DNA of 64,000 bases from Psammoneis japonica. Lineage: Eukaryota. The stretch lies in contig QPGO01000002.1 in the NCBI GenBank assembly GCA_008632985.1, forward strand, positions 434,001 to 498,000, in the 5' to 3' direction. A program made the position numbers and the translations under genes. The notes beneath the pieces are model-generated. The model had not been told where the DNA came from and made no database searches. It saw only the letters and a list, made by a program, of their open reading frames with translations. Shown one piece after another: positions 1 to 60,031 of the stretch. Each line of letters starts with the position of its first letter. The stretch's first letter is position 1.

Positions 1-164
1 AGGAGCGAGGGAAGTTTGCGAAGCCAAGAACTCCTCCAGTGCAAGCACGAGAAGTTTGCAGTGCATCAGGGACCCCGCACAAGAAAGTTTGGGCTCCCCA
101 AGGTGTGAAAAAGCAAGAAGTTTGCAAAGAACGTGTTTGTGCCCCCCTGGGGCGCCAGTGTGAC

Positions 165-1918
165 CTCAGGCAGGACTCTGTGCAGCATGTGCGGGCCCGC
201 AGAATTTTGTGTGCCAGCTCTGCAACAAAGTTGTTGAGCAACAAACATGTGAGATGATTGACAACAGAAAAAGCAAGGCACAACTTTGCAGGCACATCTC
301 CTCCTGTGCCTGTGTGTGTTCTTTTGCACACCCAACCCACTTTTTTTTGTGCAGATGAAGAAAATGGAGAGCCTTTGGCTTCACAAGACAGGGTGCATGA
401 AACAATTGGGTGCACAAAAAATGTGTGTGTGCAGCATGTGGCACGATCCAAAAAATCTCATGCCACACTCCAGCACCAGCGCTGGGCCTCACCTGGAGCT
501 GGGGTGGGAGAAAGGCCCCGGCATGTGAGAATGGTGCCATGTGGAGCCAAATGTTGTGCCACAGAATCAGCAGCAATGACATGCATGTGCTCTTAAAATT
601 GTGTCAAAGCAAGAGTGACTTGTGCCACTCACTTGTTGTCTGCACAGCTTGACATGCCAAAAAAACAATGACATGGATTGACTCATCTTGTTGACTTTGC
701 ATTGCATTTTGCACAATCTGGGTCATCCACCACAATCTTGGTGCTCAAATTGAAGGTGTGAAACTTTTGCTGGTGCTGTGTGTGCTTTGTTTTCACCTCA
801 GTTGTGTGTGTCAAACAATTGTGCCCCTTTGTGCATGACACATGTCACAGGCTGCTGTGAGCAAGTCAAATTTGCAGACAGACATGCAGAGACTGTGGAG
901 CAACATGCAAGCCAAGAAGCAGCAGCCAACATGGCTCTGTTTGACAAAAACAGATGACCCCCAATGCAGAGGGGTGTGAAAAGCACAAGTGCAAGCATCT
1001 GGGTTGTGAGCTGCTCTCATGTGGTGGCGTGAGCTGAAAAGGTGGTGAGGAAAGAGGAAAAACTTTGGCCCCTGTTGACTCATGTGGCAGCTGTTGACAG
1101 TTTTTTGGAGCTTGGCAGCCATTGCTGGTGCAAGCCTGTGTGTGGAAGTGAGACAGTGTGGTGCTGCAGCAAGAGCCAGCTGGCACATTTAAACAGCCAG
1201 CTCAAAGATGATTGTTCCATGTCATGCCGGCACAGATGCAGAGCTGCACAACATTGTTGAAGAACAGAACAGAGCCCAAATTCAAGCTTGTCTTGCATCT
1301 TCTTGTTCAAGATTCAACGACTGGCAAAAAAATTCTTTTTCAATGAACTGATGTTCAAACGTTGTTTTGATTTTTTGTCAGTGAGGCACGTGCTTGTGTC
1401 ATGCAGGGTCCCCATCTTTTTGGCAAAAAAAAGTGTGTGGAATTTGATGAGGAGCAATTCTGGCAAAAATGCATGCCATCAATTGTCGTTGTCGTTTGTG
1501 TGGTGTGGCACTTTTGTTGGTGTGGTTGTGTCCTCCCTTGTCTGACACAGATGCACTCCAGCTCCAGCAGGTGGGACCTTGCACCACTGAACTGTGACAT
1601 CAAGAGGTTTTTGAATTGCGCTGCATGTTGTTTTTGAATTGCGCTGCATGTTGCACATGCAGATGGCTGCATGTGACATTCTACAAAATTGTTTCATGCT
1701 CCCTGTTTTGCAAAACCAAAGGCTTTCTGTCAAGAATGAAAGTGCACTGGGGGCACACTCTTTGATGTCTGCTTGAGTGTGAAGGAGGAGATGCATTTGC
1801 AAAATTGCTTCTTTTTCTGTTGGCGATCATTCACATTTTCATTGCTTGACAAATTCAGCGTGGAGCTTGCACACAGAATTCTGCGGGCCCAATGTCACAC
1901 GGAGCCCTGCTTGGGGCT
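165..1918. repeat. Diverged inverted repeat pair (~165-410 vs ~1686-1918)
   Basis: GGGCCCGCAGAATTTTGTGTGCCAGCTC (~193-220) matches the reverse complement of GAGCTTGCACACAGAATTCTGCGGGCCC (~1863-1890). CATCTCCTCCT and AGCCTTTGG...CAGGGTGCATGAAAC also match in inverted orientation. A related motif recurs at ~56225-56260. Confidence 0.7.
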
Positions 1919-2199
1919 GGAACCCATCCACACCTCACAATGTGCTGGCCAGGTGTGTGCAGAATTGCCGGCTGCCATTTGTGCTGGCTGTTGCCAATGT
2001 GGTTGAGGATTTTGTTTTTGCATGGAATGTGGGCATGTTTCTGAAGGGGGGTGCCAATGTTGCCATGGATTGCAACATCTGGTTGACAAGACATGTTGAT
2101 GAGTGCCTTGGCCTTTTTTTGCAGGATGGGATCAACCTGTGCAGCTTTTGTCACTGCAGCATCATTGTTTTCCTTTTGTGCCAAAAATTTGGCAAGGGT

Positions 2200-4387
2200 C
2201 ACTCTCCTTTTTGTCTTGCACACGCAGTGCATGGTTGTCAGTTGAAGACATGGACACGGGAGACGAGACAATCATGTCATGCGGTGGCATTCAGGCAACA
2301 CCAAGCAAGAAGGAGGCCAGATCAAACCACCCTGGAGCAAGTCTGGAGTGGCTGAAGAAGCACAGCATTTGCTTGGATGGGTTGGCCATTCAAAAATCCA
2401 CAATTCCGGGTGCGGGCCACGGAGCCTTTAGCAGGCGCGCCATGAGCACATTGGTGACATGCTTGTCACCGCCCCACACTGCTGTTTGTTGATTGTTCCC
2501 AAACACATCTGGTTGAGCAGAAGTGTGGAAGTGGCATGCATCCCAAAATTCCACAGAGGGAGCTTGGCATTGACTGCACCAGCAACAACCTCAGAGGAAA
2601 GCAGCTGCTGCTCAATTGCTGCTGTGGAAGCCCAGATTCAAACGTGATGCTGCTGCCGTGCATGGCGCAAGGATCAAACTTCATGAACCACAACCGCAAG
2701 GGTGCAAACGTCTGCATGCACTGGTCAAACAACCAGTGCAGCAACAACACCAAGTGGTTTGAGATGCTGCACCACAACCTGTTCAATGAGGTTGCAGGCG
2801 CTGAGCCTCTCCTTGCATTTGACTGCGTGGCGCTGCGAAACATTGCACCCAGAAAGGAGATTTTTGCAGATGACGGTGACGAGTGGGTCGCAGCATGGGA
2901 AAAGCAAGTGAAGGAATGGAAGCCACCATTGGATTGTGAGCACGTTTCAGCTGATGACTGCATGCGAAAGCACCCAAGCAACCCAATTTGCACAAGCACA
3001 GAGCAGCTGGCTCGTCCTCATCCCAGCAACGTTCAAACTGCTTGCTTGTTTGGCCCAACCGAGGATCAGAAGCACCCAGAAAGAGCTTCAGCTGACAGCA
3101 CTGGAAGCCACCAGGAGCTTTTGGAGGTGGAATCGCATGGCAAGAACCACTGCATGCATCACTGCACGGTGCTTGATCGGACAATTGACAGTCAAGGCAA
3201 AACATTCTACAAGGCACACGTGCACTCACGAGTGGGTGAGTCTGACTTTTGCCATGCAACCGCCTTCCAAAGTCTGGTGTGAATGTTTGCAACATGCCAC
3301 CCCATGCTGTTGCTTTGGTTGACAAACCTTGCACAACCAACCAGCACCTCCCTCAGGCGTTTCGACACAAAACTGGCCTGCCCGAGGACTTTCATCCACA
3401 AACTTGGACAAAAAAGGACCAAAGATCCAAGGGTGACTTCACACAAACACCCCTGAAAGCTGGCAAGCTTGAGGTGATTCATTGGCACGACACAGGCAAG
3501 GTTGTTGCTCCGCACACGTGCAGGCTTGGGCTCGACAAGAAGGTCTGGCAAGTGCTGCTGGATTGCTGCAACAAAATGGGAATTGCCGAAATTTTCTGCC
3601 ACATTGCGCACCACGGCAACATGTTGGAGCCCAACGATGATGCACACTTTGACCTCAGTGGGGAGGAGCGGCACCTTCAAAGGTAAGTTTCGAGTTGGTG
3701 ACCCCACGAGAGCTTCTGGATGCACCCCCGATGCCACTCATGTGTCCAACACCATTCCTCCCTGCTGCTGTGCAGACTGGAAATGCAGTGGAATTCCAAC
3801 CTGCAGTGGATCTCGCCCGGTGCCAGCCCTGCCCACGAAAGCTGCACTCAAGTGCTGAGCAAAGCGGGGTTTGACGAGATGCTGGAAGGGATTGGCAAAC
3901 TCCTCAATGTGGACGGGGGTTGGCTGCGTTTCACATTGCCTTCATTGGGGTGTTGCACTCAACAAAGGGATTCCTTCACAGCGACATTGAGGGGACAGAT
4001 GCAAAGACGTTCAACGTCATTGTTCCTCCAACCCTTGCAAACAAAACTGGCCCTGAGCTCGATTTGCAAGACAGTGGACCGCTGGGTGACTGGAAAGATG
4101 ACGAGTGCAACAAGGTCAACTTTCCGGCTGGCAGGTGCAGGTGCGAGTGCGACGTTGCCCCCATGATGGGCAACAACGCATTCCATGCCAGCAGCGTGGT
4201 TGACCACAGAGCCACGGGGGAGATGCGAATGGCGGCGACTGTGCACCTGGCCGACGTTGACGAAGCAAACGTCAACACGATCATTTCAAAGTGCACCCAA
4301 GTGCACCCTCTGGCAGAGCGGGAGCTTCTCCTGTCTTGGGCCGGCAGACACTGGCAAAAGAACGACTCCTCAAAGAAGCTGCCATGA
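2200..4387 (+). pseudogene. Hypermutated pseudogene of a diatom SET-domain protein (same family as 60032-61792), followed by a 2OG-Fe(II) oxygenase-like segment
   Basis: Fragments SLEWLKKHSICLD, STIPGAGHGAF, QLLLNCCCG, NFMNH, LAFDCVALRNIAPRKEIF and AFRH align with the intact gene at 60 kb. The downstream part has HxD (LHSD)...H...R spacing. Several frameshifts/stops; Tyr replaced by Cys/His. Confidence 0.8.
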
Positions 4388-6227
4388 CCAACAAAGGACC
4401 ACATCCTGCTGCATGACCTGTGGGCCATTGCAACGGCACAGTTGGTGAGAAAAGAGAGGCCAGCCAACAGCAAACCTCACACGCACTTCATTGCAGAATC
4501 ATTGACACCCGTCTCTTCAAATGAGCTGATGCACACGAAACTGAAACCGGCTTGCCTTAACAAGGTGCTCTTGTGTTTGCAAGCACTGCAAAGCACATGG
4601 ACAGCAGGAGCGGAGGCTTTTGATTGTTCAATTGTGCTGGCGGTCAGGTTCTGCTTCAGATGCAGGAACAAAAATCGACGTTTGCGAGGAAACACGAGGA
4701 TGCAGCAGAGCTCAAAACGCTCACACCCTCCACAGAGAGCTTGTCAGTGGGCTCATAAAAATTGAGCTGCTGCCACTGAACTTGCAGGAAAGGAGCTTTT
4801 GAATGCAAAGAAGAAGACAATTCTGCATTTTGGTGCCCACAAGATTGGGAAGGAATGGATTTGTTTTTGTTGATTGCCCGGCATTTGAGGACAAAGGAGT
4901 GAGTTGACTGGTGATGGCATCACATCCTGTCAGAGCAAATGTGGCATTTGCTCATGAAGGTTGATGCCCAAGCACACCTTGAAGAGAAGCTTGGGGAGAA
5001 CAAAAAGAAAAATGAGCTGGGCAACAAACACTTCTGATTTCATCTGATGCATCCACACAGTTGCCAGTGGAGTTCTTGCCAAAATGCACAGAAAATGTGA
5101 CCCATGACATTGAGGGAGAGTGGTGCTGAGTTGTGCCTGAGTTGGATGAACTGGGTTGTTGCTCTGAACATGTGACAGACAAATGGAAAGGACAAAAAAC
5201 AAAAAATGTAGAGTTCACCACACTTGAGAAAATGCAGCTGCAGTTTCACAGGAAAAAGGTGTGCATTTGCTCTGTTGATTTTTGCATGGTGAAGCATGGC
5301 AAAAGCAGAAAAAAAGCCATCTCACATTTGCCACAACTGGGGTGTCACAGTTGACATGGCAGACACATTGAAAGAGATGTGAGAGCCTCTGCTTTTGTTG
5401 TTGGTCAGTGTTGGCATCACAAAAGCTGCAAAGACACCGCAAAACTGCAAACAGCTGCTGACAGTTCTCCTGATTGGACCTGTCAGTTTGACATCTGTCT
5501 GCTGTGATCCTCCAAGCCACTTTCTGAAGCCCAAATTTTCAATGTCTCAACAGCCCTTTTCACGTTTTTACAAGCTCAAATTTGCACAAAAGCACTTTGA
5601 AAGGGCTCCCTTGCATTGTGCAGATTTCACACCAGTCACTTTGCAGTGGGGTGATGCTCATGGGCCCCAACAATGTCTTTTTTGGGCAAAAACTGTCTTA
5701 GAAGTGCTGGAGGTGTGCACAGTTTTTTGTGCAAATCTGCCCAGCATTTTGTGTGGGATGCACACAAGCCCCACACTTTTGTGCACAAGCACAGGCATTG
5801 CAAAACTGCACAACTTTCTGGTCAATGCCCACATGAAGCAAGTTTTTCTTCTCATAGACAGAACCTGGATGCTGAATTGCTGTGACCCTCCAGAGCCAGA
5901 ATTTTTTTACCACGACAAAACCACGGCCTCTGACGACCTCCTCTGTTGACATCACCACTGTTCAACAAGAAGGTTGCTCTCCCCGACACCACTTGCGCTC
6001 TTAACAACAGATGCTAAGAGCCTTGTTTTGGGCAAGTCACATCCTTTATCGTGCGCTTTCCATGGGCTCAGGAATCATTGGCACTGACCCATTTTTTCCT
6101 CTTGAGCTCCCGCTGCAGCTCAACCCATCACACCCCACTCAAAGATGTGTGTCTCCATTGCCGTCAAAAGGATCCCGTCACCACTGGCGCATCTGTTGGA
6201 CTTGGCGTTCCTCTACCTTCTGCAACA

Positions 6228-7752
6228 ATGACAGAAGCATCGTCTGTGGCAGCGTCTCCCAAACGCAAGCGAGATCCCCAGAGAAACCATCATAAAGGTG
6301 TGCGACTCTACCCTTGCATCTGCCGTGACAAGGAAGAGTGCAAGCAAAGCATGAGGGACTTCATTGATGCTGGTGACAAAAAAAGGTGTGGTTGCTGCCA
6401 CCTTCCCTGTGCCATGGCAAAAGAAGGCCATGTGGAAGCGGCAATGTAAGTGACAACAACATGAGAGTCGTGGCGTGTCGGCATCTTGTGGGGAACTCTT
6501 GTGTGCCACCGGAACCTGCCAGCAATTGTGAGTGCATCAGATTCAATCATTTCCATCCTGCTGTTTTAAAAGAGGACAACAAAGGTCCTTTGGAAAATGT
6601 GGACTGTGAGACGGGAGAATTGCTGTGCTTTCACAAAAGTGACGTAAGAGATCGGAGCAACGGAAAAATGTCATGCCACCCGGCGCCGAACTGCACCAAG
6701 AAAGATTATCTACGAGATGCCAAGTCAGCCCGCGCATCATTAGACCCCATTGGAGTTTATCTTGATGAGGAAGACCATGCAAGAGACTTGCCTCGTCCAC
6801 CGCCAACAGCCCGAAAAGTTGCAGCAGCACAGAGGAACGCCGCATTTGATCCAGACGGAGCGGGAAAGGAGAATGTTGGGTTGTGAGTAGAGCTTGAGCA
6901 TGTGAATGAGTTGCTTCAAATTGCATTGAAAAGAGCTGACAAACTGTCATCAGAGCTGGCAGACAAGGCTCAAAAGTTGAAAGTGTGCTTGGAGCGGGAG
7001 GATGAGATTGAAGTGATGGGTGGACTGAGCAGGGAGAATCTGACGAGCGGCAAGTGGCATGAGGATCATGACAGAATGGCGAAGCATCTTTGGGGACTGG
7101 GGCACATTTGAGGAAACCATCTGCCATGTCACCAAGGTTTGGTTTCCTGATGTAGAGGAAAGATGCGGCAAGGGAAAGGAGCGATTCACGGCGGTCGAAG
7201 AGGTGCTGACATGCACAATGACGATGCACCGGGATTGTCGGGTGGCAACTTTGGGGTCGACATGGCATCGTGAAGGCAACAGCTGGTTTCCACGGATGGC
7301 ACAGATGTGGATGCCTCGCCTTGGAAAAGTGGGGCTTTGCATGTCCATGCTCGATTTGGACTTAATGGACAATTGCCTGCCAGAGGACGTTGCATCAAGT
7401 AACAGCATTCCACACTCGACCACCAGCGATCCACCTCAACACACCTCTTACATCACGGCTACGGTGCCAAAACAATTTAAGGGAGAAAGGGCATGAAAAA
7501 ATCGCGGCGGTCGTGGATGGCAAAACATTTCTGACAGAAACAGTTCGAGTCTGCACTGCTCTCGATCGCTTGCTGTACAGTGAGAAGACGGATTCGAGTG
7601 GTGGGCTTACAATGACATGGTCGGCTCCCACTGGTTTGGTGTTTGAGCACACAGGGCTCTGCTTTGGACGATGCCCTGAGAACAGATTAACAGAATTGTG
7701 GGGAACAGTTGACGCAAACCAAATTTTGTTTGCTGACGAGCCACACCAGTGA
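6228..7752 (+). pseudogene. Cys/His (THAP-like) region plus N-terminal half of a Harbinger-type DDE transposase, disrupted
   Basis: CICRDKEEC...RHL...HFHP, then IAAVVDGKTF...LYSEK...WSAPTGLVFEHTGLCFGRCPE, resembling the first-Asp half of DDE_Tnp_4. Stops and frameshifts present. Confidence 0.6.
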
Positions 7753-7795
7753 AAGAAGAAGCAATCACACATGTGACATAATGTGTGAGAGGCAG

Positions 7796-8485
7796 TCAGC
7801 TAGACTCTTTTTCCTTTGTGATGTTTTGCAAATCCGCCTCTTTTTTCTTTGCTCTGCTATCCCGAGCCGTTTCTTTTCTCTTTCGAGCTGCAATTTTCTT
7901 TTCTTCAAAGTCCTCAAAGTGAGATTTGTCAGCTGGATGCAGATTTGGATCAGGGGCATGGCATGGGGCATGGAGATTGGCACGCCCTTGCGAGCAGTTG
8001 ACAGCATGATGCAGACAAGGGAAATGACCACTGGTTGTAACATCTCGAACACAGGCATCATCAATTGCTCGCGTGAAGACACCTTCGCTTGACCATCGAA
8101 GCGATTTGATTCCTTCATCCTCACGTACCTCAGCAATGTCATGGTGCTTCCCAACAAGGTGTTTTGGGCAGATCATCTCATTCCCGTTGGGATGCAAGCA
8201 AGACGCATTGTTGAAATTCTTGTCGCCGCATGCTTGATCGTCTTCTTCAATTTTTAGCAGACGGTCTTTTTGGCGGATCATGGACGGGTCTGTCACGTGC
8301 GGCAGCTGCTTCAACAAACGATCACGACGAGGCTCTGAAATTTCTGCGCAGTGAGAAAGGAGTGTCCGTGGCAGATTTCCCGCCTTCACTTCTTGATGCA
8401 AGCACTCAAGCATCTCTAATTGTTCACGCTTTGAGTTGAGAGACTCATTCAGCCCGCCCTTGCCTTGAAGCTTCCCCTTGTTCAT
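7796..8485 (-). pseudogene. C-terminal half of a Harbinger-type DDE transposase
   Basis: CGDKNF (DxGF-like second Asp)...PNGN...P...DEGIKSLRWSSEGVFTR (R...E..F.R catalytic Glu helix)...ANL. Confidence 0.6.
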
Positions 8486-8729
8486 GGCTGCATTTTGTCT
8501 GCTGTGACCCGATGAGCGAAATCTCGCTCAGTCTCTGTCAGCTCGGCCCTCTTTTTAGCCTTTGCAACCATGGCCTCTGTGTTGGCGCATGTTTGCATTG
8601 TGGGAGTTTCATCATCATCTTCATTTTGAGCCGCGGTCTCAACATTTTCGTCTTCGTTGTCCCTTTCTCTGGAACCATGGGTCTCAAAGAACGCCAGAGT
8701 GGCTCTTCCCTCAGCTTTTACCTCCTTCT

Positions 8730-10760
8730 CTACTTTGCTAGACTCAAAAGCTCCGGCCTCAAAAGGGATGGGATTGACTGGTGTGGTTTGATGGACTCCG
8801 GCATTGCTTCAGCAAGAGTGTCCACGGTCCATTCAGCATTCGTTTGTGCCAAGTAAATTGGACCTCCAAGAAAAGCAAGGGCGTGGGAACACCCATCTAC
8901 GACGGGGCACTCACACCTCGATCCAGGACACGGAACACAATCCCCTGTCTCCTTGTCAAATGCGACATAAACCCAACATGGGTCCGACTTCTGGGACGGG
9001 GTCACAAGCATGCGAAAGAGAACCACACTGCGTCCTGTCTCCTTGTGCCTTCCCTCTGTCACAGAGAAGGTGGCGACATTGCAGTTGCCACCATCAACAC
9101 GTCTGCAAGCATGGCACCTTGCGCCATTTCGCTTCTTCCGACACATTAGATTGTTGATCGATTCGTCGTCAATTTTCATTGCTCCTTGCACTCTTTGCAT
9201 GACATTTTCATGATCCCACTGCCACTGTTGCCCTGCTGGAGGTAGCATCACCTGCTCAATGGAAAAAGTTCCCGAATCTTTTCGTGACTCTGACAAGGAT
9301 CGTGGCACCGGCTGCAAACCGTTTGATCGTTTCATTTTGTCTAGAGTGGCCCGCACTGCTTCCTCAAGACGAGCCCTTGGGATGGTCCCAGCATGAGATG
9401 GTGGCAGGCTTCGCCGCTCCTGCAAAAAAGCTCTCATGCGGTCAACATCAAGGAATCCGATGGGAATGCCGCCTTTGTCTGGATCAACGTTGAGCTCCGC
9501 CAAGTGGCTGATCATGTGTCGGTTGTCGCATTGAGGATGTGGAATTGCCTCTTGCTCAATTGGCTTTCCTCCCCTTGCCCACATTTCCATTGAGAGCAAG
9601 GGATGGCAGTCAGAATTGTCCATGCTGTTGCTGTGTAGAATGTCGCCGAGGACAGCCGCCGGCGACTTGTCGCATCCCAGGCATCTTCCCCATCCCTCAC
9701 CACCATCCTCAGAAAATTGTGGGTGATCACATAATGGCACAAGCTCAATGCCACCATGTGCATCCTTGCTTGGCAGTTTTGACAAATCAATTGCATCTGA
9801 ACCTTCCTTTGGCAACAGCCGAAAGACTGGATGACCAAGGAACACATTCATGGCATGCCCAGCTTCCAACGCGAACCCTTTTGCAGGCTGCCCTCCGTCA
9901 TCAGCACCATGAGCTTTTGGTGGCCACTTACAATTGGTCTCAATGTCCTCTGGGTGCTTTCTCTCATCTGTGGCGGCTGTGCATCCATCCATCGTCTCGG
10001 CAAACGGCAAACTGTGTGGCTTGACGTTGTGGTCGCAGCCCCGAAAAGCAGGAACAGCACACTCACAGTCCTTCCAGCGCCCCCCGCCCGCACACACACG
10101 AGCATCAATTTGAGAAGCTGCCAAGATGCAGCAATCGCCATTGAAGGGGTTCAAGTTTGTGATCCATTTCTTACAATCGCACCCATGCACGTCACCATCC
10201 TCAGATTCCACGCATCCAACGATCCCAGAATTTTGCATCTCCACACACTGTGCTTCAGCTTCAACCGCAGCTTGAATGTAAGGCATTCCTTCTCGGTCAA
10301 ACACTTTCTTGATTAGAAGCATGATGTCTCCTCGAGGACAAACAATGCTCTTCCATTTGTTTGGCACCTCCAGTCAGTCTTGTTCAGGTTTGTTCTGCTC
10401 AAGAAGAAATGATGTTCTCTCCTCAATTGGCTTTTTCCTGGCCTTGCGCTTGGCATCCGTTCGCCATTTGAGTGGATTGTGTGTGCCATCAAATGCATGC
10501 ACAGCTTCAACGCCATTGTCTTTGTAGAGTCTCTTGTGTCGCCGCACCAACAATTTAGCAGCTTGGGCAACAGGTGTCTTCGGTGATGAATGGACTTGCC
10601 TGGCAGCTGTGGGGTCAATCAGAATCTTGTACAGTGGCATGGACATGTCAACTGCAACACTTTCTCCTCTCAGCTCTGATGGATTGTTCACCGGCTTGTC
10701 GTCAACAAGGTCAAACTCGGGCCGGTGCACAACATCAACACACACGTTCTCGATTGTCAT
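8730..10760 (-). pseudogene. XPG/FEN1/Exo1-family nuclease plus SWIM zinc finger, frameshifted
   Basis: XPG-N-like LRGESVAVDMS..LY...AFDG...PLK..T...R; XPG-I-like PYIQAAVEAEAQC...GIVGCVESEDGD; SWIM-like VTPSQK...WVYV...CECPVVDGCSH. Frame change near 10370. Confidence 0.75.
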
Positions 10761-28125: not shown

Positions 28126-28139
28126 CTCCCCAGTTTGCT

Positions 28140-44056: not shown

Positions 44057-44220
44057 AGTGGTGGTGATGCAAGTTTGTTGTTGACAAGGAGCAAACAACA
44101 ACGCACAGAGGTTTTGGGGAGAAGTTCTTCTGTTCAGTTGATTGCGACGCGAGACATATGAGAAAGATACGGTTGCGATCTCGGATGGAAGTTCGTGACG
44201 TCGACATGGAGAAATGTAAT

Positions 44221-44232
44221 TTTGGCGGGAAA
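44221..44232 (-). promoter_or_regulatory. E2F-like site TTTCCCGCCAAA
   Basis: Matches the TTTSSCGC consensus ~165 bp upstream of the ATG at 44056. Confidence 0.45.
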
Positions 44233-44817
44233 ACCCGAGTCACGCGCATGCGCGCGAACGAAATGCGAGACGAATCATCCAGATCCTGTGATGATAATCG
44301 AACCGGTATGGTAAAGTGTACTCTACTTCTCTCTACTCTCCCTCTAGAAAGTAGAGAGTGAAGTAGCTAGAGTAGAGAGGGCCCTAGAGTAGAGAGGTAG
44401 AGAGAGGGCTGCTTCTACAAGCAGTATGGTAGAGTGTAACTACTAGCTAGAGTAGTAGGAGCAGAGAGAGAGAGAGAGAACAGAGCCATGATGAATGATC
44501 AGATTGAGAAGGCAGCGTCATGGACCTCAGAAGGGACGAGCTCCACAAAATGTACTCAGTACAGCCCTACCGTTAGGCTATGATTAAAATCTGTGAGCTT
44601 GCTTGATCTACCTAGATGGAAGACAAATCAAGATAAGGACAGCAAAATATCTAAAAACTCCTAAAAGAACAGGGAACTTGTACATTTGGGTCTAATGGCA
44701 CTATGGCTGAGGTCGCAGAGGAACGTTGATAACAAGAGGGAGGATAAGGATGAAACCCCGGCTACCACGTTCGACTTTCGAATGATCATTTTGCGGATGA
44801 TTCTTGCTTTGCCACTC

Positions 44818-46190
44818 TTACGACTGCACTGCACGGACACTCGTCTTATCAATGAAGCATTGCCCACGGTAAAACGTTGCCGTGCAATTCTTTCGAGAGA
44901 GTACTGTCGCGAGCACACCATACTGACTATCGGACATGACAATGCATTCTGATTGCATCAGGACCACCAGTTCCGCCCATCCATCCATCATGCCGTGAAA
45001 TGCATCCTGGTTATCTCCGTTATGTTCAAGTGGCACGTCCACATGTGATATTACTATTGCGGAAGGAATTCGAACAGAAGAATCCCAAGTCCGAATGAGG
45101 TCCTTGGCGTCGCTGTTGTCAGAGGCGAGGTAGACTCCTTTCGGACGAGGAATATTCCTTTTCAGCTTGCGTGCGCATTGAAGGAATTTCTTGTATGCTT
45201 CTGGTCCCCAGTCAAGAAATCTCTTCCTGGGTATATCCATTTCAAACTGGAACTTTTGATCCCCTGTCCGCAAATGGGCTGAAATGTACGGGAGTGCCTG
45301 GTTTAGTTCATCGTCCCATGGCATGTCAGCCAATTTTTTCAGATCATTCGCCCTTTCCAAGACAGGATCTGTCAGTCGGAACAGGCTATGAAATGCCCAG
45401 TAGGAGAGATTCGCAGCAGCGTCTTGCTCGTCGACAAAGGTTGGTTTGACTTGCCCGATGCTGCGAAAGTGTTTCTTCATTCGCCTGCTGGTCCAGGTGG
45501 AAAGCGCTGGAAATGTATGAGAGTGTTCGAATCTGACACCCATGTGGCCAGGCTTTATGAGTTCAAATGGAAATGACTTCATTTCATCTTGCAAGCTGTG
45601 CACCGGTATTCTTGTTGCGTTATAATCGTAGGTAGCATTCCAGTACACCTCTCGCGGTATCAAAAAATTCTCAAGAGGGAACGGAAAATCAGATTCAATA
45701 AGAAGTACGCGACCGGTACATATTGCAATGTAGAGTAAATGAAATATTCCGTTCAAACGATCTCCAATGCCGCCGCAGTGTCGCTTGAGATCCGTTTCGA
45801 ACTTTTGGTTGGCCTTGCATTCATACACCAAGAATTTCACTCCTGGTTTCAGTCTGCCTTGGCGTCGATGCTAGAGCGATGAAACTCAATGTAATCTTTG
45901 ATAAAGTCTGGAAGTATTTTGGCTTGTTCATCAGAAGTTCGTCGAGTGGTGTTTGATGCCAAAGACGAGTTCTGATCACTAGCCAGACGTGGCGGATGGA
46001 GTTCACGTTGTCCTTCGTTGCACTCATTCCAACGTAGTTCACGAGACTGAGAGAAAACAGATGGTCCTCCAACAAGAGAGAAATTCGAGTAAGCCGTAGA
46101 GACAACCACAAAGAGGCCGCAGTAGAAAGCCAACAGTCTCTTCTTGCTACGTGACCTGGTTATGCCTTGTCCAGGATTCGAGGTTTCCAT
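44818..46190 (-). CDS. Fucosyltransferase-like (GT-B, alpha-1,6/O-FucT-type) type II membrane protein; 1-bp frameshift near 45860
   Basis: N-terminal TM anchor; CGGIGDRLNG, SAHLRTGD, VYLASDN, SQYG motifs. One added base would join IDA to QGRLKPGVKFLVY. Confidence 0.75.
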
Positions 46191-49100: not shown

Positions 49101-50367
49101 CAGCTTGGGCTCCAAAAAGGCAATGCACTGTGCATTTCTGATCAGAGGGCCAGCTGGATCTCTGACTTGATCTTCAAAAACAACATGAACATGTCTTGCA
49201 ATGGGAGCTGGCTTGGTCTCATCCATGCTGGTGGGAGCAGCATTTCAAAAAAGCAGTTGGAGGCTCTGCCATGGCTTGAGAGTCACCATTGCCACCCAGC
49301 ATCTGGCACAAAATGGCTGGGGATGCAACACTTGTCAGCATCTTCCTCTGGCACAATTGTGGGCATGGCACTGTGCAGGAGGCCTTGGATGTGACTGGGA
49401 AATTTGTTGCTGTCATCAAAACAAGTGCAAAGAATGCTGGAAACAACTGCAGCATTTTTGAAGGGTGCAGCGCTCCTGGGAGAGCATTGCTGATGATGCT
49501 GCAGCAGTGTTGACATCAGAGGGGCTGACACTGTCCAAAACCTGGCACACAATTGCAGAAACGCTGTTGGTCATTGTGGTTGCCTTGATCAACAAGAAGG
49601 CACCAACACACACCCATCACTTTGCCACACCAACAAATGGGGGGCAGAGAGTGGGCACTGGTGATGGCACCGGCACTCGTGGCAGCAATGGCAGCAACGA
49701 CAACAAAGACAATGATCTTTTCCATGCAGTGGACTGTGAGCTGATGAGCAATTCAGAAATTGTGAGAGCATTTGAATGAGAAAAAATTTTGTCTGAGTTG
49801 AGGTGACATGGTGCAAAACACTCAGAAATCTGCGCAATTTGAGCTGCTCGTCAGACGGGCGACACTTGCTGATGTTCAAAGAAAGTTTGACATCATGCCT
49901 GTGTGTCACAATGGTGCATTGGCCATGGATTGGTTTCACCTGCAGTGTCCACCAGCAATGTCATGGCAAGTCCCAATGGATCTTGGATGATTTGCAAACA
50001 GTGTCACAAAACATGAGCTGGAGGACCACACATGCCAAAACACACTCAGTGTCGCAGCAAAACATGAGCTGGAGGACCACATGCCAAAACACTCAGTTGC
50101 AGAGAAATGTGGGTGAACAATCCATGAAAGGGGTGCTCACAAAAGAGCCAAAACAAGGCTCACAAGGAACAAAATCCATTGCTCACCATGGGAAGATGTT
50201 TTGATGCATGTTGCACATGTTTGCAGCACAAGGTTGCAGATTCAAGTCTCAGGAGTTCTCACTCATTCTTGTCTTGAGAGGGAAACCAACAATCTGCTGA
50301 GTCCACAATGACTCGCTGTCATGTGTCCACATGTGAACAACCACAGGGAAAATCGACAAAGCTGTGG

Positions 50368-50814
50368 CGCAGCATGCATGCAGACAAAAGGTCATTTTTG
50401 TCACGCCCTTTGTGACATTTAAAGGCTGCAACACGTCGCCGGGATGCATTGACTCTCATTGGTGGCTGTGTGCTGCACTCCTCCCCATGTGTCACGCGTC
50501 CATGCGGCTCTTTACTAATGTGCACTGACGCTGCACGGTTTTGGCGGAACAGTGTGGGTGCGTGCGAAGGAACACACAGAACTGCACAGAGTTTTACGCG
50601 TTCGACAGTGATCAACGTTGCTGCAGACAACTCCCACTCAGGATTTCGAACCCCTGGCCTCCTGCCCAATTGTTGCGATGAACCACTCCGCTGTGAATTC
50701 ACAACGCAGCATGCATGCAGACAAAAGGTTATTTTTGTCACGCCCTTTGTGACATTTAAAGGCTGTGACACGTCGCTGTGATGCATTGACTCTCATTGGC
50801 AGCTGTGTGTTGCA
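50368..50814 (+). repeat. 110-bp direct repeats (50368-50477 and 50705-50814)
   Basis: CGCAGCATGCATGCAGACAAAAGG...GATGCATTGACTCTCATTGG occurs twice. Confidence 0.9.
50630..50700 (-). other. Degenerate tRNA-like sequence (possible SINE head or tRNA pseudogene)
   Basis: Minus strand reads CAGCGGAGTGGTTCATCGC (A-box/D-arm-like) and CAGGGGTTCGAAATCCTG (B-box/T-arm-like). No intact anticodon arm. Confidence 0.4.
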
Positions 50815-51352
50815 GTGGTGCCTCTCTGACTCCAAGATGCTGTGCATGCCCAACAAACACACCACGTCGCTCCAGTTGGTGGCATGTGATGACTGCGAGA
50901 TCCGCACACAAACAAGGGTGCATCTTGGTCACGTGCAATTCCTTGGGCGTTTCCTACATCCACTGACAACTTCATAAACAAAGAAGTGGGTGTGCACATC
51001 CACCATCAACGCAATGCTGGACATGCGATGGGGACGCAATCACGCGTGGCGCAGTTTGTGTGCGCATCGAGCTTAGCCGATCGTGCTAATCCGCATTTTG
51101 AATTTGCAAATCCGAGCCGATCGGACCCGCTATGGCGGGCCCTACCGCGACATCATCACGAAGGGATCATGCTTACCGCATTACCGGTAGCGGTACATTG
51201 GAAAGCACAAGCGTGAAGTTGAGAAGAACAGTAAAAGCAAGGGCTTGTTGGTTGAGAGAGCCATTCTCTGTAGAGAATAGAGCGTTTAGAAAAGCACTGC
51301 AGTGGACACAACTGACGATCTTTGGATGAGTTAGCCGGGACAAACATGAAAC

Positions 51353-52327
51353 ATGGCAGCACAGCATCCTCAACGCAAACGCCCTCGCCGCGCTGCTGCG
51401 GTCGCCCACGACGCTACAACAAATGACGATGGATGGGAGGTGCTGTCTAGCCTTTTCGAGAGAGTTCGTGATGCAAAATTTCTGGTCTTTTCTGGGTCTG
51501 GCATCAGTGTAAGTGCTGGCCTTGCTACCTTTTCGTCGAAACACGGTTTGTACGCACAGGCGGCAAAACGATACAAAATGAAAAGAGGCTCCGACGTCTT
51601 TTGTTACAACTTTTTGCAATCACATCCAGAGGAGTCCTTTGCGTTTTTCAAACATCTTTACAAAAAATTCGTCAAGGCTAAACCAACACCTACCCACATG
51701 GCTCTCAAGACGATGCAAGACACAGGACAGCTCGTGCGACATTACACGTTGAACATTGATGGTCTCGCTGCAGCGAGTGGCATGTCGCTTTGGAGTCCAG
51801 AAGCGACCGACAACAAAACGGTGGAATTACACGGCAACCTCAACACGCTCGTGTGTCGCGATTGTGGAAAAGTATTTGACACAGAGCAAAACTTGAACAA
51901 CAAGGCTGACGTACCAAATTGCCCAAATTGCGGTGACGGAGCCTTGTTGCGGTTTCGAGTGCTCATGTACGACGACGCACAAAGTCATTTGATCCACCCT
52001 TTCAATCCGTTGCAAGAGTTGTTGCCAGTTGATCTCCTACTGTGTGACGCCGTCCTCTGGATTGGTATTTCCTTTGAACAGAGTGCGTCGTGTGAACATT
52101 TTCGTTTTGTACTTAATGCAATTCAAGAGGCACCAGCTCCAAGCGACAAACGACGACAAACACAAGTGCCAATGTTTCTTGTTGACCCAAACGCTGCAGA
52201 TACAATACAGAACCTAAGCGATGGGCTACAGTTGCAGCTTAGGGGAAGCAGCGGCGTGTTTACAGTACAGTCGGAAAGTGATGAGTTCTTCAAAAAGATT
52301 GCTATTCAGCAACGAAAATTTGACTAG
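51353..52327 (+). CDS. Sirtuin (Sir2-family NAD-dependent deacylase)
   Basis: SGSGISVSAGLATF, PTPTH, YTLNIDGL, ELHGN, CRDC...CPNC zinc site, IGISF. Confidence 0.92.
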   Translation: MAAQHPQRKRPRRAAAVAHDATTNDDGWEVLSSLFERVRDAKFLVFSGSGISVSAGLATFSSKHGLYAQAAKRYKMKRGSDVFCYNFLQSHPEESFAFFKHLYKKFVKAKPTPTHMALKTMQDTGQLVRHYTLNIDGLAAASGMSLWSPEATDNKTVELHGNLNTLVCRDCGKVFDTEQNLNNKADVPNCPNCGDGALLRFRVLMYDDAQSHLIHPFNPLQELLPVDLLLCDAVLWIGISFEQSASCEHFRFVLNAIQEAPAPSDKRRQTQVPMFLVDPNAADTIQNLSDGLQLQLRGSSGVFTVQSESDEFFKKIAIQQRKFD

Positions 52328-53340: not shown

Positions 53341-53398
53341 GATCCTTCTAGTCCGTGTGCACTAAATTGCTCCTAACTAACATTGATGGCTTCTAATG

Positions 53399-54971
53399 CT
53401 AATCATCACCTGTAAACAAGTCCCACAGTGTCTGTAGTATGCTACCGACTCCTCCTTCGCCGTCCTCTCCGGTATCACCGCCAGCTCCGTCAAAGGCTTC
53501 GCTACCACCAGTGCTGTCGCTGCTTCCTTCGTCATAGGTAGTAAAGCTGGTATCATCCGAAAAGTCCTTTGTACCAAAATCAGTCTCGTCACTCGATGAG
53601 AAGGAGGAGGATTCTTCCATATCTGGAAAGCTTTCGTCTGAAAATACGGTTTCGGAGGAGCTCGAAAACTCGTCTGTTGACGTACCAAAGCCGTCTCCTG
53701 ACGATGCTGTCTCTCCTGTTGTGGTACTGCTACTACCAGCTGCATCTCCAAAGAGCGCCTCTGACGATTCAGGGTCAATATTTTGTGCATCATCAGACAT
53801 GGCTCCCGATGACGCTACAGTGGCCTGTCGATCCGCCTCCACCGCTGCATCCGTAGCCGCCACCATTTCTTCAGGAGACTCTGAGTCGTCTTCAAGTCCA
53901 GCAGCAGCCTCATCCCCAGCAGCAGCACCTTCTGCTTCTCCACCGCTGCCTCCTCCCATGCCAATGGGAATACCAAATCCAAGTCCACCACCGGGCACTC
54001 GTCTTGCAATTTCCGAAATCATGCGATCCGGCGGCATGCCCTGTAGCCAAACCGTTCCTGGTCCCGTTAATCTGAATTATCAGAAAAGGACACAAATATG
54101 GATAAGAACTTGGCCTGGGTTGATCGTGAGGACGCAAATGTGGAACTTACGTAGTCATGAAGAATCCTTCTCCGCCAAACATCACATTTGCAAACCCAGG
54201 CACTGTTTGAACATCGTATTGCACTGATGGTTCAAAAGCTACAAGACTCCCACGCGATACTCGCAATGTTTCTCCGTCTTGTAGTTCACGCTTGACAAGC
54301 GTCCCGCCCGCTTTCAGAAAGACGTCTCCCTCTCCCACCAAGGCTTGCAATATGAAACCCTCACCTCCAAAGAATCCAGTCGTTAGCTTCTTTGTAAATT
54401 CCATTTCCATATCGACTGATGGATTACTCGCTAGAAAAGCCCCACGCTGACAAACTAACTTGCCTCCGTAATCGTCTAGATTGAGCCTAATAATCTTGGA
54501 TGGAAAATCCGTTCCCAAACCCACTTGTCCAGACGTTTTCTTGTCGTCACTCGGTGTATACGTAAAGTCACTGACAAACACATTTTGTCCCGTCATGAAT
54601 CGTTTAAATCCACTGCTCATGCTTTCGGTATTGGTATTCATTTCCACGCCCTTGGTCATGAACAACATGGCTCCCGACTCGGCTCTCAACACTTGTCCCT
54701 CCGACAGAGTGACTGTCACAATTTGAGATTCTTCCCCCTGAATTTGCGAACTCACAGAAAAATCAATAGGAACAATCGACTTGTCATTGTTGTTGGCTGG
54801 TACAAAGTCGTTGTTTTCGCTGTTGTTTTCAGACGAAGAAAAGTACCGTTCTGAGACAGTCAGCGCTCGTCTTGTCCGACTTTCAAGAATTGCTCCTCTT
54901 TTAGACAGACCGTGACGTAAAAGCAAGGAAGCAGAGTACCTGGACGCCGGTATTCGTCGAAGCATTGACAT
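53399..54971 (-). CDS. AIM24: Mitochondrial AIM24-domain protein with acidic C-terminal tail (intron 54072-54150)
   Basis: Transit-peptide-like N-terminus; RAESGAML, GFFGGEGFILQ, FGGEGFF. GTAAGT...CAG splicing gives TTLTGPGTVWLQGMP. Confidence 0.9.
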
Positions 54972-55129: not shown

Positions 55130-58100
55130 TCTCAGGTGAACAACAGCTGGCTGGCTGGCTGTGCTGTTCGACAGTCATGCTGTGTCATGGTCACCACAAA
55201 CTGCTGCCAACAGAGGAGCACCTCCATGACACAGTGCTCCCCCCCTCTCTCTTTTATGGGTTTGTCAAAGTTTTTGTTTTGATGTGGGAGTCTCAACAAT
55301 TGCCAAATTGGCTCTCATGTGCAAGCACACGACAAAAATCAGCAAAACAAAGGCCACAGCTCTTTTTGGTCGGCAAGGCTGCACTCTGGTGTGGTGCTTG
55401 AGAAGAGCCAGTTGTGCCATCTCAAGATGGCTGCATTGTGGCCAGGCTGTGAGAGCATCAGTGTGTCACACAGACCCAGCTTGGGAGCCTCAATGCTGAT
55501 TTCTCAGCATCGAAATGACAAGAGAGAAAAAACCCAAGAGGGAGAAGTCGTTGGTCATTTTTGACATGTTCTGGTCAACAAATCCTTGCAAAATTTTCAC
55601 CACAATCAGACCCATCATGACAAAAACTTGCCCCATGTTGCTGCTCTTGCGCCGAGCCAGCAATCACCTCACTTGCCTCATGTTTGTTTGTCTTTGTGTC
55701 AGGTCTTCCACATTTTTCATTTCATTGCAGTTTTTGCAGGTCAACTTTTCTTGACAACTTTTGGTCAGTTGGGTCCCACAATGGTGCCAGCACCATTGGA
55801 CATCCACTGGAATGAACACAACCCATGCTGCTGCTCTTGCAAAAAACAAGACAGTGCCCCAGATGTCTCACGCTTGTCTTTTTGTTGCAGCTGCCCACAT
55901 TTTTCATTTTGTGCCAACATTCTTCATTTTTCCCCACTCAACTCCCTTGAATTGTTCACACAAGTCCTGTCACTGAACAAACACACAGGCTGCTTCAAAG
56001 CTGCACTCTTTTTTGAAAAATTGAGGTGGCCAGTGACTCATGCAACCTGGCAACAATGAGTCACTTTTCAACCCAACAAAACTGAGCAGTTTTGCAAAAA
56101 GGATTTTTGTTTTGGGGCCATTTCTGAGAACAAAAATCTGGACTGGACAGTGCAAACATGTGCAGGGTTTGCCTCTTTTTCTGCAGGAGGTAACCATTGG
56201 TTTTTCACTGCAGAGTTCATGCGCGGAACTCTGCAGGCCCAATGTCACATGCCCCCCCTGGGCTCCAACATCTGTCTGCTCTCGACCTCCTCCTGGTTCC
56301 ACAGCACCCTTTGCAAGTGGTCCCTTGTGATGTGGGTGTGGGTGATGTGTGATGACATCATCACATGCATTGAGTTGGATGCATTCATGCGCTGGCAAAC
56401 ATGCATGTGTCATTGAGCAAAAACTCCCATCCACAGCACCCCCAAATCTTGAGTCACCTGGAACCAACTGCACAGCTGAAGACACTTTTGGGCCATTTCC
56501 ACACCACAAAATAAGCACACATCAACTTGACTCATCCATGATGATGTCTTGTGATTCTTCCTCAATGCCTTTGCAGGACACCATTCCTGCACTGTTGCAA
56601 ATGACACTGGTGCAACAGGTGACATCATCAACTCTGTTCTGAATGGCCTGATGCATGCAAAACAAGATGCTGCCAACTCACACTGTCATTTCCTTGCCAA
56701 ACTGCCTCCCACAGATGCTGTCACAAATGCCAATGCTGTCCCTGCATTTTTTTGACTGACATGCCCAGTGCCATTGCTCACACCCTCAGTGCAACAGGTG
56801 CTGTTGATGCTGTTGTTGACTTGTGCCAACGACATCTGCAACTAAATGGCGCCAACTCCTCACACTGTTTTTTGTTCTCACTCCTTTGCCTCTCACAGGC
56901 ACAGTCACAAATGCCACAATGCTGACACCCCCCCCATCACCCCAACCCCTCCCAACGCTGCCACACCCTGCACAGATGGCAACCCACTTGCTCCAGCAGG
57001 CAGGATGGCATCCCTTGGTTACATTTCTCACAGTGCAGAAGACATGACCAAGCTCTTGGCACCGCTCAAGATGCCATTTTCCAAGGCAAGCCAGGCATTG
57101 GGTGCATGCCGCTGCGAACACTCTTGGTGTCTTTGTTGACACCAGTTGCTGACATTGGAGACGTGATCATGACTGAGACTTTGCCAGTGCATCCCCAACT
57201 GTGGAGGAATGGAATGAGCACTTGGCAGATTTGCACAAGCAGTCCAGTGTGCATTGATTGTCTCATTGTGCTTTTTTGGCCAAGGAGTGCAATCCCCGAA
57301 TGCCTTGGACAGTTGTGAGTTGGTGAGGGTGTCAGATGACTCCATGTCGGGTTCTTGACCAGCTGAGTTTGTCGACTCTGAGCATTCTTCAAACAAGATT
57401 CTAACCAAGGATTTAGTCGAGAAGAGGAATCACATTCTGTGGACTCTGCAAGCACCTCGGTGTGCCATCTGAGTTGAAATTGTGCGCAGGACATCAGATG
57501 TTGAACTCTAAAAAGATGCTCTTCAATGCAAAAGGCGAGGTCTGCGAATTGTGCTGCCAACCCACCTTCTGCTCCTGGAGAGCAACAGTTGAAGCTAGAA
57601 GCAGTCTTGTGCTGCAACAACAGGTGCTGCAGACCAAAATGTGCAACAGCGCAAGTGTCAAAATGGAGAAAAAAAGTGCAATGTTGAGAAGCACATCCTT
57701 TTGGGTCTCATGGCACCAACTTCTGTCCAAACATTTCACAAGGTGTGAATGACAAGGCCTCAGACAAACAACTGTGACAGCCAATGGCATTGACAGTGGT
57801 GAACAAGGAAGAGAACATGTGAGTTTTCCCACAGTTTGGAGGCTCATGGACACACAGCACTGGGCAGAGACCTGCCACCAAAAGGCTTGGCAACTTTGCA
57901 CAGTTCTTTGTGGCTGTTGAAAAGCTCTTCACAGCCATTTTCCAAACCCCTGCAACATCGCAAACAAGGGATTTGGTGCCACCAATGGGTCGGAGCGACA
58001 AGCAAGAAAGAATGGGTGTTTTGGTTCTGTGTTGATGCAAGGATGCCAAACCCTGTGTCTTGCTGCCAAGCATGAGGACGCTTGCCAAAGACATCAACAG

Positions 58101-60020
58101 AGACACCAACAAAGGAGTTGTGGATGGCATTGACCGGCAGTGCAGGGTTGGTGTTGACAGCATCTGTGGGAGGTGGTGGTGCAAGAATGGAAAACAGTGT
58201 CAGTTGGTGCCATTTAATTGTGGGTGTCATTGGTGCAAGACAATGACAGCATCAACAGTGCCTGTGACAGCAATGGCAGGAGTGACAGCATCGAGTGTGC
58301 TGGTGGAGTCAAACGCAGGTGCGGCATTGGCATTCGTGACATCATCTGTTGGAGGCAGTGCAGCGTGGAAACAAAAGTGTCAGTTTGCAGCAATTGACTG
58401 TGGATGTCATTGGCACAAGACAACAACAGTGTCAACAGCACCTGTTGTGCTCAGGGCATGAGCAACAGTGTCGGCATGACAGTCAAAAGAAACACAGGGA
58501 CGGCGTTGGCATTCATGACAGCATCTGTGGGAGGCAGTGGAGCATGGAAATGACAGTGTCAGTTTGTGGCATCTCACCTTGCATGTGTCAGGCCATTCAG
58601 AACAGAAGCAATGACATCACCTGTTGCACCAGTGTTGTTGTCAACAGTGTTGGCAGGAACGGTGTCCTGGGAAGGCATTGGGGAAGAGTCGCAAGGCACC
58701 ATCATGGTCGAGTCGAGTTGACGCTTGCTTTTTTCGTGGTTGCAAGAAAGGTCAAGAAGTGTCTTCACCTGTGGTCTCCAGGGGACTCAAGATTCAGGGG
58801 AGAATGTGGTTTGGGATTTTTCCTGTCACTGTTGGCATTTGTGCACAAAAGCAAAATTAAGTGACATGTCAACACACACAAAATTCATGATGTGAACATT
58901 GCATCACCATGACATCAAAACCACATTTTCCACTTGCAAAGGGGTGGTTCCACAGCTGAATCCTTGCCCACCTGTGCCAAATCCCAACAGCTCAGATGAC
59001 TGCCAGGCTGTGGCCCCGCACCAAGTGATTTGCCAGTGGCCTGGACCAAGTGCAGCTGCTGCACCATGCAAAAGTCTTGTCCTCTTTCCCTCGGTGTTTG
59101 AGTGAGAAACGCTGCACTCAAAACAGGAACAATTCAAGTGCCATCTATCCGGCAGTGCAGCAGCTCCCTGGAATGTGTGATTTTGTGCACAAAGATGGCA
59201 CAGACAGAAAATTGGGAGAAAGCGGTGGGGGGCGAGTGCTGCGGCAAGTGCCAAAGCCATTTCTGGACGGCAGAGCAGCTGTGGCCAACAAAGTGCAGGA
59301 TGCACCCAGTGATGGCAAGCTCCTCACAATCCCTTCCCTGACTCTTGGGCACAATGCAACAGATCAAGGAGAAACTTGTAAAACTTCTCAAAGCCCGTGT
59401 TTGTGTGGAAGCACCCAGTTTTTGTGCACTGTGAGAGGGCCGCCGGCCAGTCGCTGCCAATGGGGCAACAGTTGCGCAAGCAATCTTGCACATTTTGTTG
59501 GGCAAAATGGAGTGCTTGAGTGTGTGGTGGTGTGTTTCCAAAGTGGGCCATTGGCACACTTCTTGTTGAAAGGGCCCTTGCTCGAAATGTCGCACTCACC
59601 ACGCAGATGCCAGCCGGAACAAACTTGCTGCACACAGCCCCCACAGAACACAATCACACTTTGCCAGAAAAGCATCAGGAGAAGCTGTTGTCTGACAACT
59701 CTTCACCTGCAGAGCGTGATGCGCCACAAACGAGCCATTCAACTTCAGCATTTCTGCCTGGGAATGAGAGGTGCAAAAAAGTGTGAGATGCGTCATTGTT
59801 GGGACACGACCCGCGACCCGTGACGCGACGATACGAGCGACTGACTCGTCGATGCCTGCTGTGCGTCCTGCGTGCGAGACGCGCCACGGCCATGGCGGAT
59901 GGCGGCGGGCGCTGGCGCATGTTCAATTTGCTATTGCGGTGATGGCAGAAAGTGATGTTTGATGTTCTTTGTGCCACTTCGCACTCCGAACACACCCAGC
60001 ATGAAACAAAGATCAGCTGT
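55130..60020. other. TpA/CpG-depleted hypermutated domain 4
   Basis: Same signature, between the divergent AIM24 and SET-protein starts. CpG reappears from ~59800 but TA stays rare until ~60030. Confidence 0.88.
56439..58800. repeat. Diverged ~450-bp inverted repeat (56439-56890 vs ~58340-58800); right arm overlaps ~180-bp tandem units
   Basis: AATCTTGAGTC.CCTGGA, ACACTGGTGCAACAGGTGA, CTGTTCTGAATGGCCTGA and CTGCCTCCCACAGATGCTGTCA occur in both orientations. GACAGCATCTGTGGGAGG-like units at 58156, 58338, 58517. Confidence 0.8.
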
Positions 60021-60031
60021 GTGTGCCAACT

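Follow-up and report, generated by a model that had tools for sequence, protein, structure and literature searches.

TpA dinucleotides are lost from transposons after insertion, by TpA>TpG/CpA mutation, in the genome of the diatom Psammoneis japonica

A stretch of 64,000 bp from the genome of the diatom Psammoneis japonica (assembly GCA_008632985.1, contig QPGO01000002.1, positions 434,001 to 498,000, forward strand; hereafter the window) contains gene blocks that alternate with four blocks poor in the dinucleotide TA (TpA), and in these TA-poor blocks lie, among other things, a copia retrotransposon and an element with terminal inverted repeats (TIR element). Our comparison of copia copies shows that the TA was lost after insertion, by mutation of TpA to TpG or CpA. 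The original prediction of four abruptly bounded domains covering more than half of this DNA was borne out by our segmentation, in which sliding windows, a three-state hidden Markov model (HMM) and change-point fits were used: the TA-poor segments sum to 34,926 of the 64,000 bp (54.6%), and 149 of the 1,342 TA fall within them (block coordinates in Table 1). Their TA observed/expected ratios (o/e) range from 0.01 to 0.22, compared with 0.54–0.63 in the gene blocks (gene value 0.59), the longest run without any TA is 1,825 bp, and TG and CA rise to 1.5–1.9 times the expectation while the GC content is nearly unchanged.

Most of the block edges are sharp, as had been claimed: the 95% interval of the change-point fits is at most 275 bp at five of the seven outer edges, and summed over all seven, a step or a ramp of at most 500 bp (−2452 to −2454) fits better than ramps of 1–2 kb (−2457, −2466). 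The claim does not extend to the edges near 34890 and 50420–51070, where ramps fit better than steps, in the latter case, at the right end of block 3, because a 446-bp high-copy repeat sits there. The left end of block 1 lies ~2.5 kb outside the window (locus L080), and on the right side of block 4, CG returns near 59790 and TA near 60030. Five edges lie ~125–280 bp upstream of start codons, and the five predicted ATGs (26987, 46190, 51353, 54971 and 60032) are indeed found at these positions, but two edges (18665 and 34890) face gene 3' ends and not starts. Pfam supported the bestrophin, SIR2, AIM24 and SET assignments, but there was no Pfam match for the "FucT-like" open reading frame (ORF) that starts at 46190. 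That blocks stop next to genes is partly trivial in a gene-dense genome. Contigs of sequencing run X2 end at 46281, 55048 and 59926, ~70–135 bp from block edges, and such contigs cannot show true starts. This run carries the label "DNA?" but contains an intron-like join, and most of blocks 3 and 4 is without X2 coverage, a gap from which we draw no evidence. CGCG-rich DNA was seen at the block edges near 27054–27119 and 59791–59916.

The copia element of block 2 spans 27850–33827, has long terminal repeats (LTRs) of 276 bp and a TCGCA target duplication, and is nested in older TA-free DNA; it is ~1.1 kb shorter than the 7.1-kb copies found elsewhere, and its reverse transcriptase (RT) is missing. 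Its body had been described as lacking TA and keeping CG, and its flanks as lacking both. CG is indeed kept in the body (0.92), where some TA remains, however (o/e 0.17), and the left flank is depleted of both dinucleotides (TA 0.00, CG 0.11), but the right flank retains a CG ratio of 0.56. Block 2 is also not uniformly TA-poor: an island with normal TA, which consists of the copia leader and 5' LTR, had been overlooked.

Table 1. Features of the window, with ratios given as observed/expected
Feature	Position	Strand	Basis
TA-poor block 1, mostly without both TA and CG	1–18665		HMM, change-point fits, L080
Relic of a SET-domain gene family in block 1; 34–55% amino acid identity to the SET gene at 60032	2340–2934	+	
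TIR element with XPG/FEN1-like ORFs at 8730–10940 (minus); TA 0.16, CG 0.65	5873–11158		Repeat analysis, Pfam
Bestrophin gene; ATG ~125 bp from edge of block 2	25593–26987	−	Pfam
TA-poor block 2	27110–34890		HMM, change-point fits
Older TA/CG-free DNA left of copia, ending in target-site duplication TCGCA (27845–27849)	27121–27849		
copia 3' LTR	27850–28125	−	LTR comparison
copia body: gag-protease, integrase, RNase H end; TA 0.17, CG 0.92	28126–33069	−	
Internal duplicate of leader segment 33216–33535	29606–29925		
Spared island, copia leader and 5' LTR (LTR 33552–33827); TA 1.01	33070–33810	−	
TA-poor DNA right of copia, starting with target-site duplication TCGCA (33828–33832); CG 0.56	33828–34890		
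TA-poor block 3, mostly low-copy in read data	46395–51070		HMM, change-point fits
High-copy repeat of 446 bp, bounded by direct terminal repeats, at the right edge of block 3; TA 0.23, CG 0.78	50369–50814		
Sirtuin gene; ATG ~280 bp from end of block 3	51353–52327	+	Pfam SIR2
AIM24 gene; ATG ~150 bp from block 4	53399–54971	−	Pfam
TA-poor block 4, with inverted-repeat pair 56590–56753 / 58486–58649	55120–~59800		HMM, change-point fits
SET-domain gene; CG-rich upstream DNA from ~59790	60032–61792	+	Pfam

The direction and timing of the loss can be read from sequences that were once the same. In the window copia, the two LTRs differ at 14 sites, 12 of them TA>CA/TG and two CG>TG, so that the 3' LTR has CA or TG at 12 of 14 TA positions of the 5' LTR, and TG at two of its 20 CG positions; in the leader duplicate within the body, 21 of 26 TA are converted and one of 20 CG. 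We compared 34 full-length copia regions of the genome, 33 of which have both LTRs, and the paired LTRs show 414 differences, composed of 340 at TA, 50 at CG, 17 other transitions and seven transversions. At 56 site pairs, the two LTRs of the same copy are altered in opposite ways, that is, on opposite strands. Paired LTRs are identical at insertion, and these differences and opposite-strand changes therefore show that the mutation was made on DNA, after insertion and on both strands. TA must be the starting state, because TA, TG and CA occur together in 133 alignment columns across 30 copia copies. The XPG/FEN1-bearing TIR element has a full-length relative (L085, G000:C62:309090-313990) with a TA ratio of 0.61 in TA-normal surroundings, and 133 of the 162 aligned TA of this relative are TG or CA in the window, with 10 in the reverse direction; the relative is either young or escapes the process. 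The loss of TA is thus post-insertion TpA>TpG/CpA mutation, and it cannot be the decay of 5-methylcytosine (5mC), because this yields C>T; CG decay is a separate, second process.

The two processes differ in their rates. In the copia bodies, 1,925 of 2,868 TA site-copies are converted, compared with 364 of 7,460 CG site-copies, and as the copies share ancestry, these counts are not independent events. A hazard analysis of 95 sites that have stayed intact in all three of the least-changed copies gave a TA/CG hazard ratio of 16, i.e. TA decays ~16 times faster than CG. A>G changes occur at 6.2 per 1000 at AA and 3.7 per 1000 at GA, whereas ~60% of the TA steps are converted (~300 per 1000 on each strand), and with private background changes outside pyrimidine–purine (YR) steps of 1.4–1.9 per kb, the conversion of TA is ~300 times above background, as estimated from copy divergence. 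The base that follows has a strong influence (hazard C 1.12, T 0.93, A 0.46, G 0.41; p=1.5e-6, 95 sites), with a doubled rate for TA followed by a pyrimidine (TAC, TAT), and a 5' G lowers the rate. CG>TG/CA reaches 24.6 per 1000, ~12 times the 1.8–2.1 of other C>T contexts. The conversion load of the copia copies spans 10–79%, and TA and CG loss are correlated across copies (rho 0.48). An autocorrelation of conversion along the element was not found, with low power, and we disregard an apparent surplus of adjacent unconverted sites, as the null model behind it takes no account of copy age. A raw sense excess, which would have indicated a transcription-strand bias, was gone when palindromic sites were analyzed.

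The process is not confined to the window. In 20 arbitrary 10-kb stretches of the genome, corresponding to 200 1-kb windows, TA o/e was below 0.25 in 91 and at least 0.4 in 98; 18 of the 91 TA-poor windows had retained a CG o/e of at least 0.7, and CG was below 0.5 in one of the 98 TA-normal windows. These genome windows, the 340 TA versus 50 CG differences between LTRs and the hazard ratio agree with the predicted order of TA first and CG later. A linear two-step clock, in contrast, is not tenable, as TA saturates early, rates differ ~10-fold by context, promoters can be spared and copies inherit some of their changes.

The TA-rich island of the window copia reflects a recurrent pattern. The region is spared (<30% converted) in 17 of 33 copia copies, whereas leader and 5' LTR are more converted (31–81%) in the other 16; the border of the spared region is ~630–750 bp from the copia 5' end, and the adjoining 5' flank is TA-poor in 26 of the 28 copies measured. 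The same LTR sequence is converted at 369 of 589 sites at the 3' end and at 229 of 593 at the 5' end, and discordant sites are converted at the 3' end in 185 cases versus 42 at the 5' end. CG loss is also lower in promoters that escaped TA loss (1.0% vs. 3.8%, p=0.003), and these promoters match the body in age (private changes per kb: 1.40 vs. 1.39, five events only). Gene conversion as the origin of spared promoters found no support, as the background changes, five events, are equal, and neither did the idea that copies with spared promoters have more converted bodies (rho −0.14, p=0.46). Within 33722–33776, where the LTR is CGCG-rich, four TA seldom show conversion in the 5' or the 3' LTR, possibly a protein-bound motif. 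Among the 12 copies (of 33) with TA-normal distal flanks, the first 50 bp past the 3' LTR contain four TA compared with ~18 in the next bins, which may reflect spread into the flanks or an insertion preference. There is also an asymmetry in that 3' flanks have at least 9 TA per 500 bp in 11 of 33 copies and 5' flanks are TA-poor.

Host sequences are spared as well: four ribosomal DNA (rDNA) copies retain TA (o/e 0.86–0.90), a 99.5%-identical pair of LHC (antenna) genes, from a sample of 12 stretches that cover part of 82 LHC matches, has 15 of 16 TA in common, and NOC2 in the window, whose homologs with an organism name are all from diatoms, retains 14 of 17 conserved tyrosines. As rDNA and the LHC pair keep their TA, repetition alone is not the trigger, and we infer that position and chromatin state, rather than sequence or copy number, best explain the sparing. 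A transposon promoter spared within a block speaks more strongly for promoter protection than edges near genes do. The correlated loss of TA and CG across copies and the lower CG loss in TA-spared promoters link both losses indirectly to silenced chromatin.

A consequence at the protein level is that TpA conversion turns tyrosine codons into cysteine or histidine codons and creates no stop codons. In copia RT sequences of this genome, 350 of 525 conserved tyrosines are now cysteine or histidine, and 23 of 27 RT stretches are free of stops. A profile of the mutated copies was searched against 1.84 billion proteins, and among the 150 matches listed, 10 have cysteine or histidine in at least half of the covered conserved tyrosine columns, and six proteins contain less than 1.5% tyrosine. 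Ten such proteins that were looked up trace to ENA and JGI/IMG metagenome assemblies, and a search for DNA encoding the tyrosine-free outside proteins did not find any. Tyrosine-free outside proteins are mostly 32–57% identical between clusters, and two that were compared with this genome reached best identities of 50% and 55%. Judging from the protein sequences, this hints that the same process may occur in other hosts of diatom-type copia. Among the 120 closest outside RT homologs, a list that favours unmutated copies, tyrosine is replaced by cysteine or histidine at only 41 of 1,920 positions, and the sole metagenome locus that could be located (L143) is TA-normal (0.65).

Mutation of this type is so far in print for a single, unrelated alga, the chlorarachniophyte Bigelowiella natans, where TpA>TpG/CpA was seen to arise de novo in two viral insertions; the preprint gives a TpA rho of 0.45, 124 clusters and a rate ~1000 times above background, describes the hypermutation as episodic and active in some lines only, and proposes ADAT2 as the candidate enzyme (Mettrop et al., 10.64898/2026.01.13.699255). 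As there, A>G/T>C is confined to TpA on both strands, loss of TpA goes along with gain of CpA and TpG, and the changes are clustered and aimed at foreign or mobile DNA, here copia, the TIR element and repeats, with host genes spared. Our case differs in that it concerns a diatom, transposons and gene relics, a near-complete erasure over ~45% of the sampled windows, and a fossil record only; our ~300-fold rate comes from copy divergence and is not per generation. The 3'-pyrimidine preference, the promoter sparing and the coupled CpG decay are not found in the main text of the preprint. An ADAT2-like gene is present here too, but it is expected in any eukaryote. What is new is the lineage and the genome scale, and we add the timing from LTR pairs, the sparing of promoters and the tyrosine-free copia relatives in metagenomes.

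Fungal repeat-induced point mutation (RIP) changes C to T, creates TA and stop codons, senses homology and leaves strand-coordinated runs. The likeness lies in dinucleotide-specific transitions that ruin transposons and leave sharply bounded compositional blocks, but here TA is destroyed and not created, no stops are made, strand-coordinated runs are absent in the copia copies, and duplication as such does not trigger the process, as seen from rDNA, the LHC pair and the sparing of one of two LTRs, a small sample. ADAR and APOBEC edit RNA or cDNA intermediates on a single strand; this too is a deamination-like, context-specific hypermutation of mobile elements, whereas in our case integrated DNA was hit after insertion on both strands, and paired LTRs carry different changes. 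The CG>TG/CA part is what CpG decay in methylated transposons would yield, but such decay cannot give A>G at TpA, and it is the slower, second process here; in Phaeodactylum, CG methylation of transposons depends on DNMT5 (PMC9998398). The genome studied here has 27 DNMT-family matches, and at L041–L043 (G000:C301, C297), ORFs of cytosine methyltransferases, possibly borne by mobile elements, lie in TA-poor DNA (TA o/e 0.07–0.10). Our literature searches, whose coverage excluded most subscription papers, found no report of TpA erasure in diatoms.

In our view, transposons and gene relics have piled up in the blocks, and two mutation processes act on them after insertion. The first, demonstrated here, converts A to G on either strand, nearly only at TpA and fastest before a pyrimidine, and the second is the ~16-fold slower CpG>TpG decay, an observed pattern that we attribute to 5mC. 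Both avoid active promoters and genes, presumably for reasons of chromatin, and this avoidance would account for the sharp block edges and the spared copia promoter. The agent of the first process may be a zinc-dependent adenosine deaminase of the host, of the TadA/ADAT type, recruited to silenced and probably CG-methylated chromatin, and the deoxyinosine resulting from the deamination would be copied as G. We regard such a deaminase, followed by slower CpG decay and presumably serving defence, as the best mechanism, at about even confidence. The sequence context fits, as TadA-derived editors prefer TA (PMC11178825), and for one evolved TadA editor, AC/AT are better targets than AA/AG (10.1101/2025.05.14.653640); the accessible parts of PMC9399415 and PMC13403082 contain nothing on a TadA context preference. 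The genome encodes a TadA-like protein (L031), an ADAT2-like protein (L035) and two separate A_deamin (ADAT1/ADAR-family) proteins (L144, L145), the gene of the second of which starts at the edge of a TA-poor block and could be assigned to its family only.

Several observations weigh against this mechanism. The deaminase candidates are unremarkable and of the kinds expected for tRNA editing, no enzyme could be linked to the process, and no fusion to a chromatin reader was present in the deaminase stretches examined. TadA-type enzymes act on single strands, whereas palindromic sites show no sense/antisense bias (252 vs. 247), and a transcription-bubble model is therefore unsupported. Neighbouring converted sites in the copia copies show no strand coordination, i.e. 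no same-strand runs, conversion does not vary with how far away the nearest CpG lies (rho 0.10, p=0.35, low power), and the TA-normal full-length relative of the TIR element demonstrates that some transposons were not hit.

Among the alternatives, an error-prone polymerase (pol eta-like) that places G opposite T at TpA in repair patches of methylated or late-replicating chromatin appears unlikely to us. Pol eta causes A>G at WA and T>C at TW (PMC2213188), the correlation of TA and CG loss across copies speaks for it, and repair on either strand would fit the absent strand bias, but AA is barely touched in comparison with TA, transversions are rare (seven of the 414 LTR differences), and neither a dependence on CpG distance nor same-strand runs were seen. 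Rather improbable is also that, in silent chromatin, the A or the T of TpA carries a covalent mark, as methyl-adenine or a modified thymine, which would miscode or be deaminated as 5mC is at CpG: a symmetric mark would hit both strands of the TpA palindrome equally, as observed, and TpA decay parallels CpG decay, yet the literature searched contains no such TpA mark, methylation of ApT is at odds with the 3' preference (C≥T), and the rate is 16 times that of CpG decay.

We give little credence to a RIP-like sensing of homology in the sexual cycle. Repeats are heavily hit, the load varies widely between copies, and diatom DNMT4, through which it might work, may be related to fungal RID (PMC9998398). 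The chemistry is the opposite, however; one of two identical LTRs can be spared, strand coordination is missing, and large parts of blocks 3 and 4 have the read depth of single-copy DNA, where DNA that is now unique may once have been repeated. The sparing of rDNA and LHC duplicates, a small sample, also argues against it, an argument tempered by the fact that rDNA escapes fungal RIP as well. The single-copy target in Bigelowiella likewise points away from homology sensing (10.64898/2026.01.13.699255). ADAR-type editing of element transcripts, fixed by reverse transcription, is largely refuted by the LTR pairs and highly improbable: ADAR favours U before A (10.64898/2026.01.13.699255) and two A_deamin-family genes exist, but the two strands are affected to the same extent, paired LTRs within a copy differ from each other, and the conversion extends to a DNA-type element and to DNA outside elements. 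A sequencing or assembly artefact caused by modified bases has in our view a negligible probability. Contigs of run X1 match the blocks almost letter for letter at ~61x, and this run, whose library type is not on record, may be the source sample of the assembly itself; nevertheless, its contigs at 44003–47500 and 56800–58395 show no other letters at all, each copy has its own TG/CA pattern, and tyrosine-free relatives occur in unrelated metagenome assemblies. Among 40 of the 83 differences between X1 and the window that were listed, all six inside the blocks and outside the high-copy repeat are at TA/CA/TG/CG steps.

With regard to the remaining block contents, most of blocks 3 and 4 is low-copy, with repeats in places. 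A Pfam search of the blocks in part of the six reading frames left most of the old block DNA without annotation. A deaminase-like gene relic (L148:1080-1538) lies within TA-poor DNA, and together with the SET relic of block 1 it suggests that copies of host genes were erased too. The 446-bp repeat, with 804 candidate copies of which 40 were scored, has 110-bp direct terminal repeats and a very high read depth and is perhaps a miniature LTR element. Outside the blocks, an ORF at 19159–19791 (minus) with YGGYYGSKGMG-type repeats and no Pfam match is possibly, by resemblance, a cell-wall protein, and a proline-rich paralogous gene pair (35013–35462 and 37051–37824; 77% identical over 168 bp) is TA-normal in both members.

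In its widest form, our reading would be that a natural adenine deaminase, guided by chromatin and common to diatoms and chlorarachniophytes, attacks double-stranded genomic DNA and so defends against transposons; this "reverse RIP", without homology sensing, would have rewritten nearly half of this genome and be active in other algae with tyrosine-depleted copia proteins. This we put forward tentatively, as a possibility that we do not favour over its negation. If true, it would be a second eukaryotic genome defence of RIP scale with the opposite chemistry, probably by a natural DNA adenine deaminase, an activity for which base editors first had to be evolved. Sequence alone would then suffice, by way of TA and CG ratios, to map silenced chromatin and relative insertion ages in a non-model alga. 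Because the process makes no stops, long ORFs persist in dead elements, which annotation would take for intact ones, and ages from LTR dating would come out many times too high unless TA and CG sites, which account for 390 of the 414 LTR differences, are masked. The loss of tyrosine, finally, would offer a protein-level screen for this process in other species.

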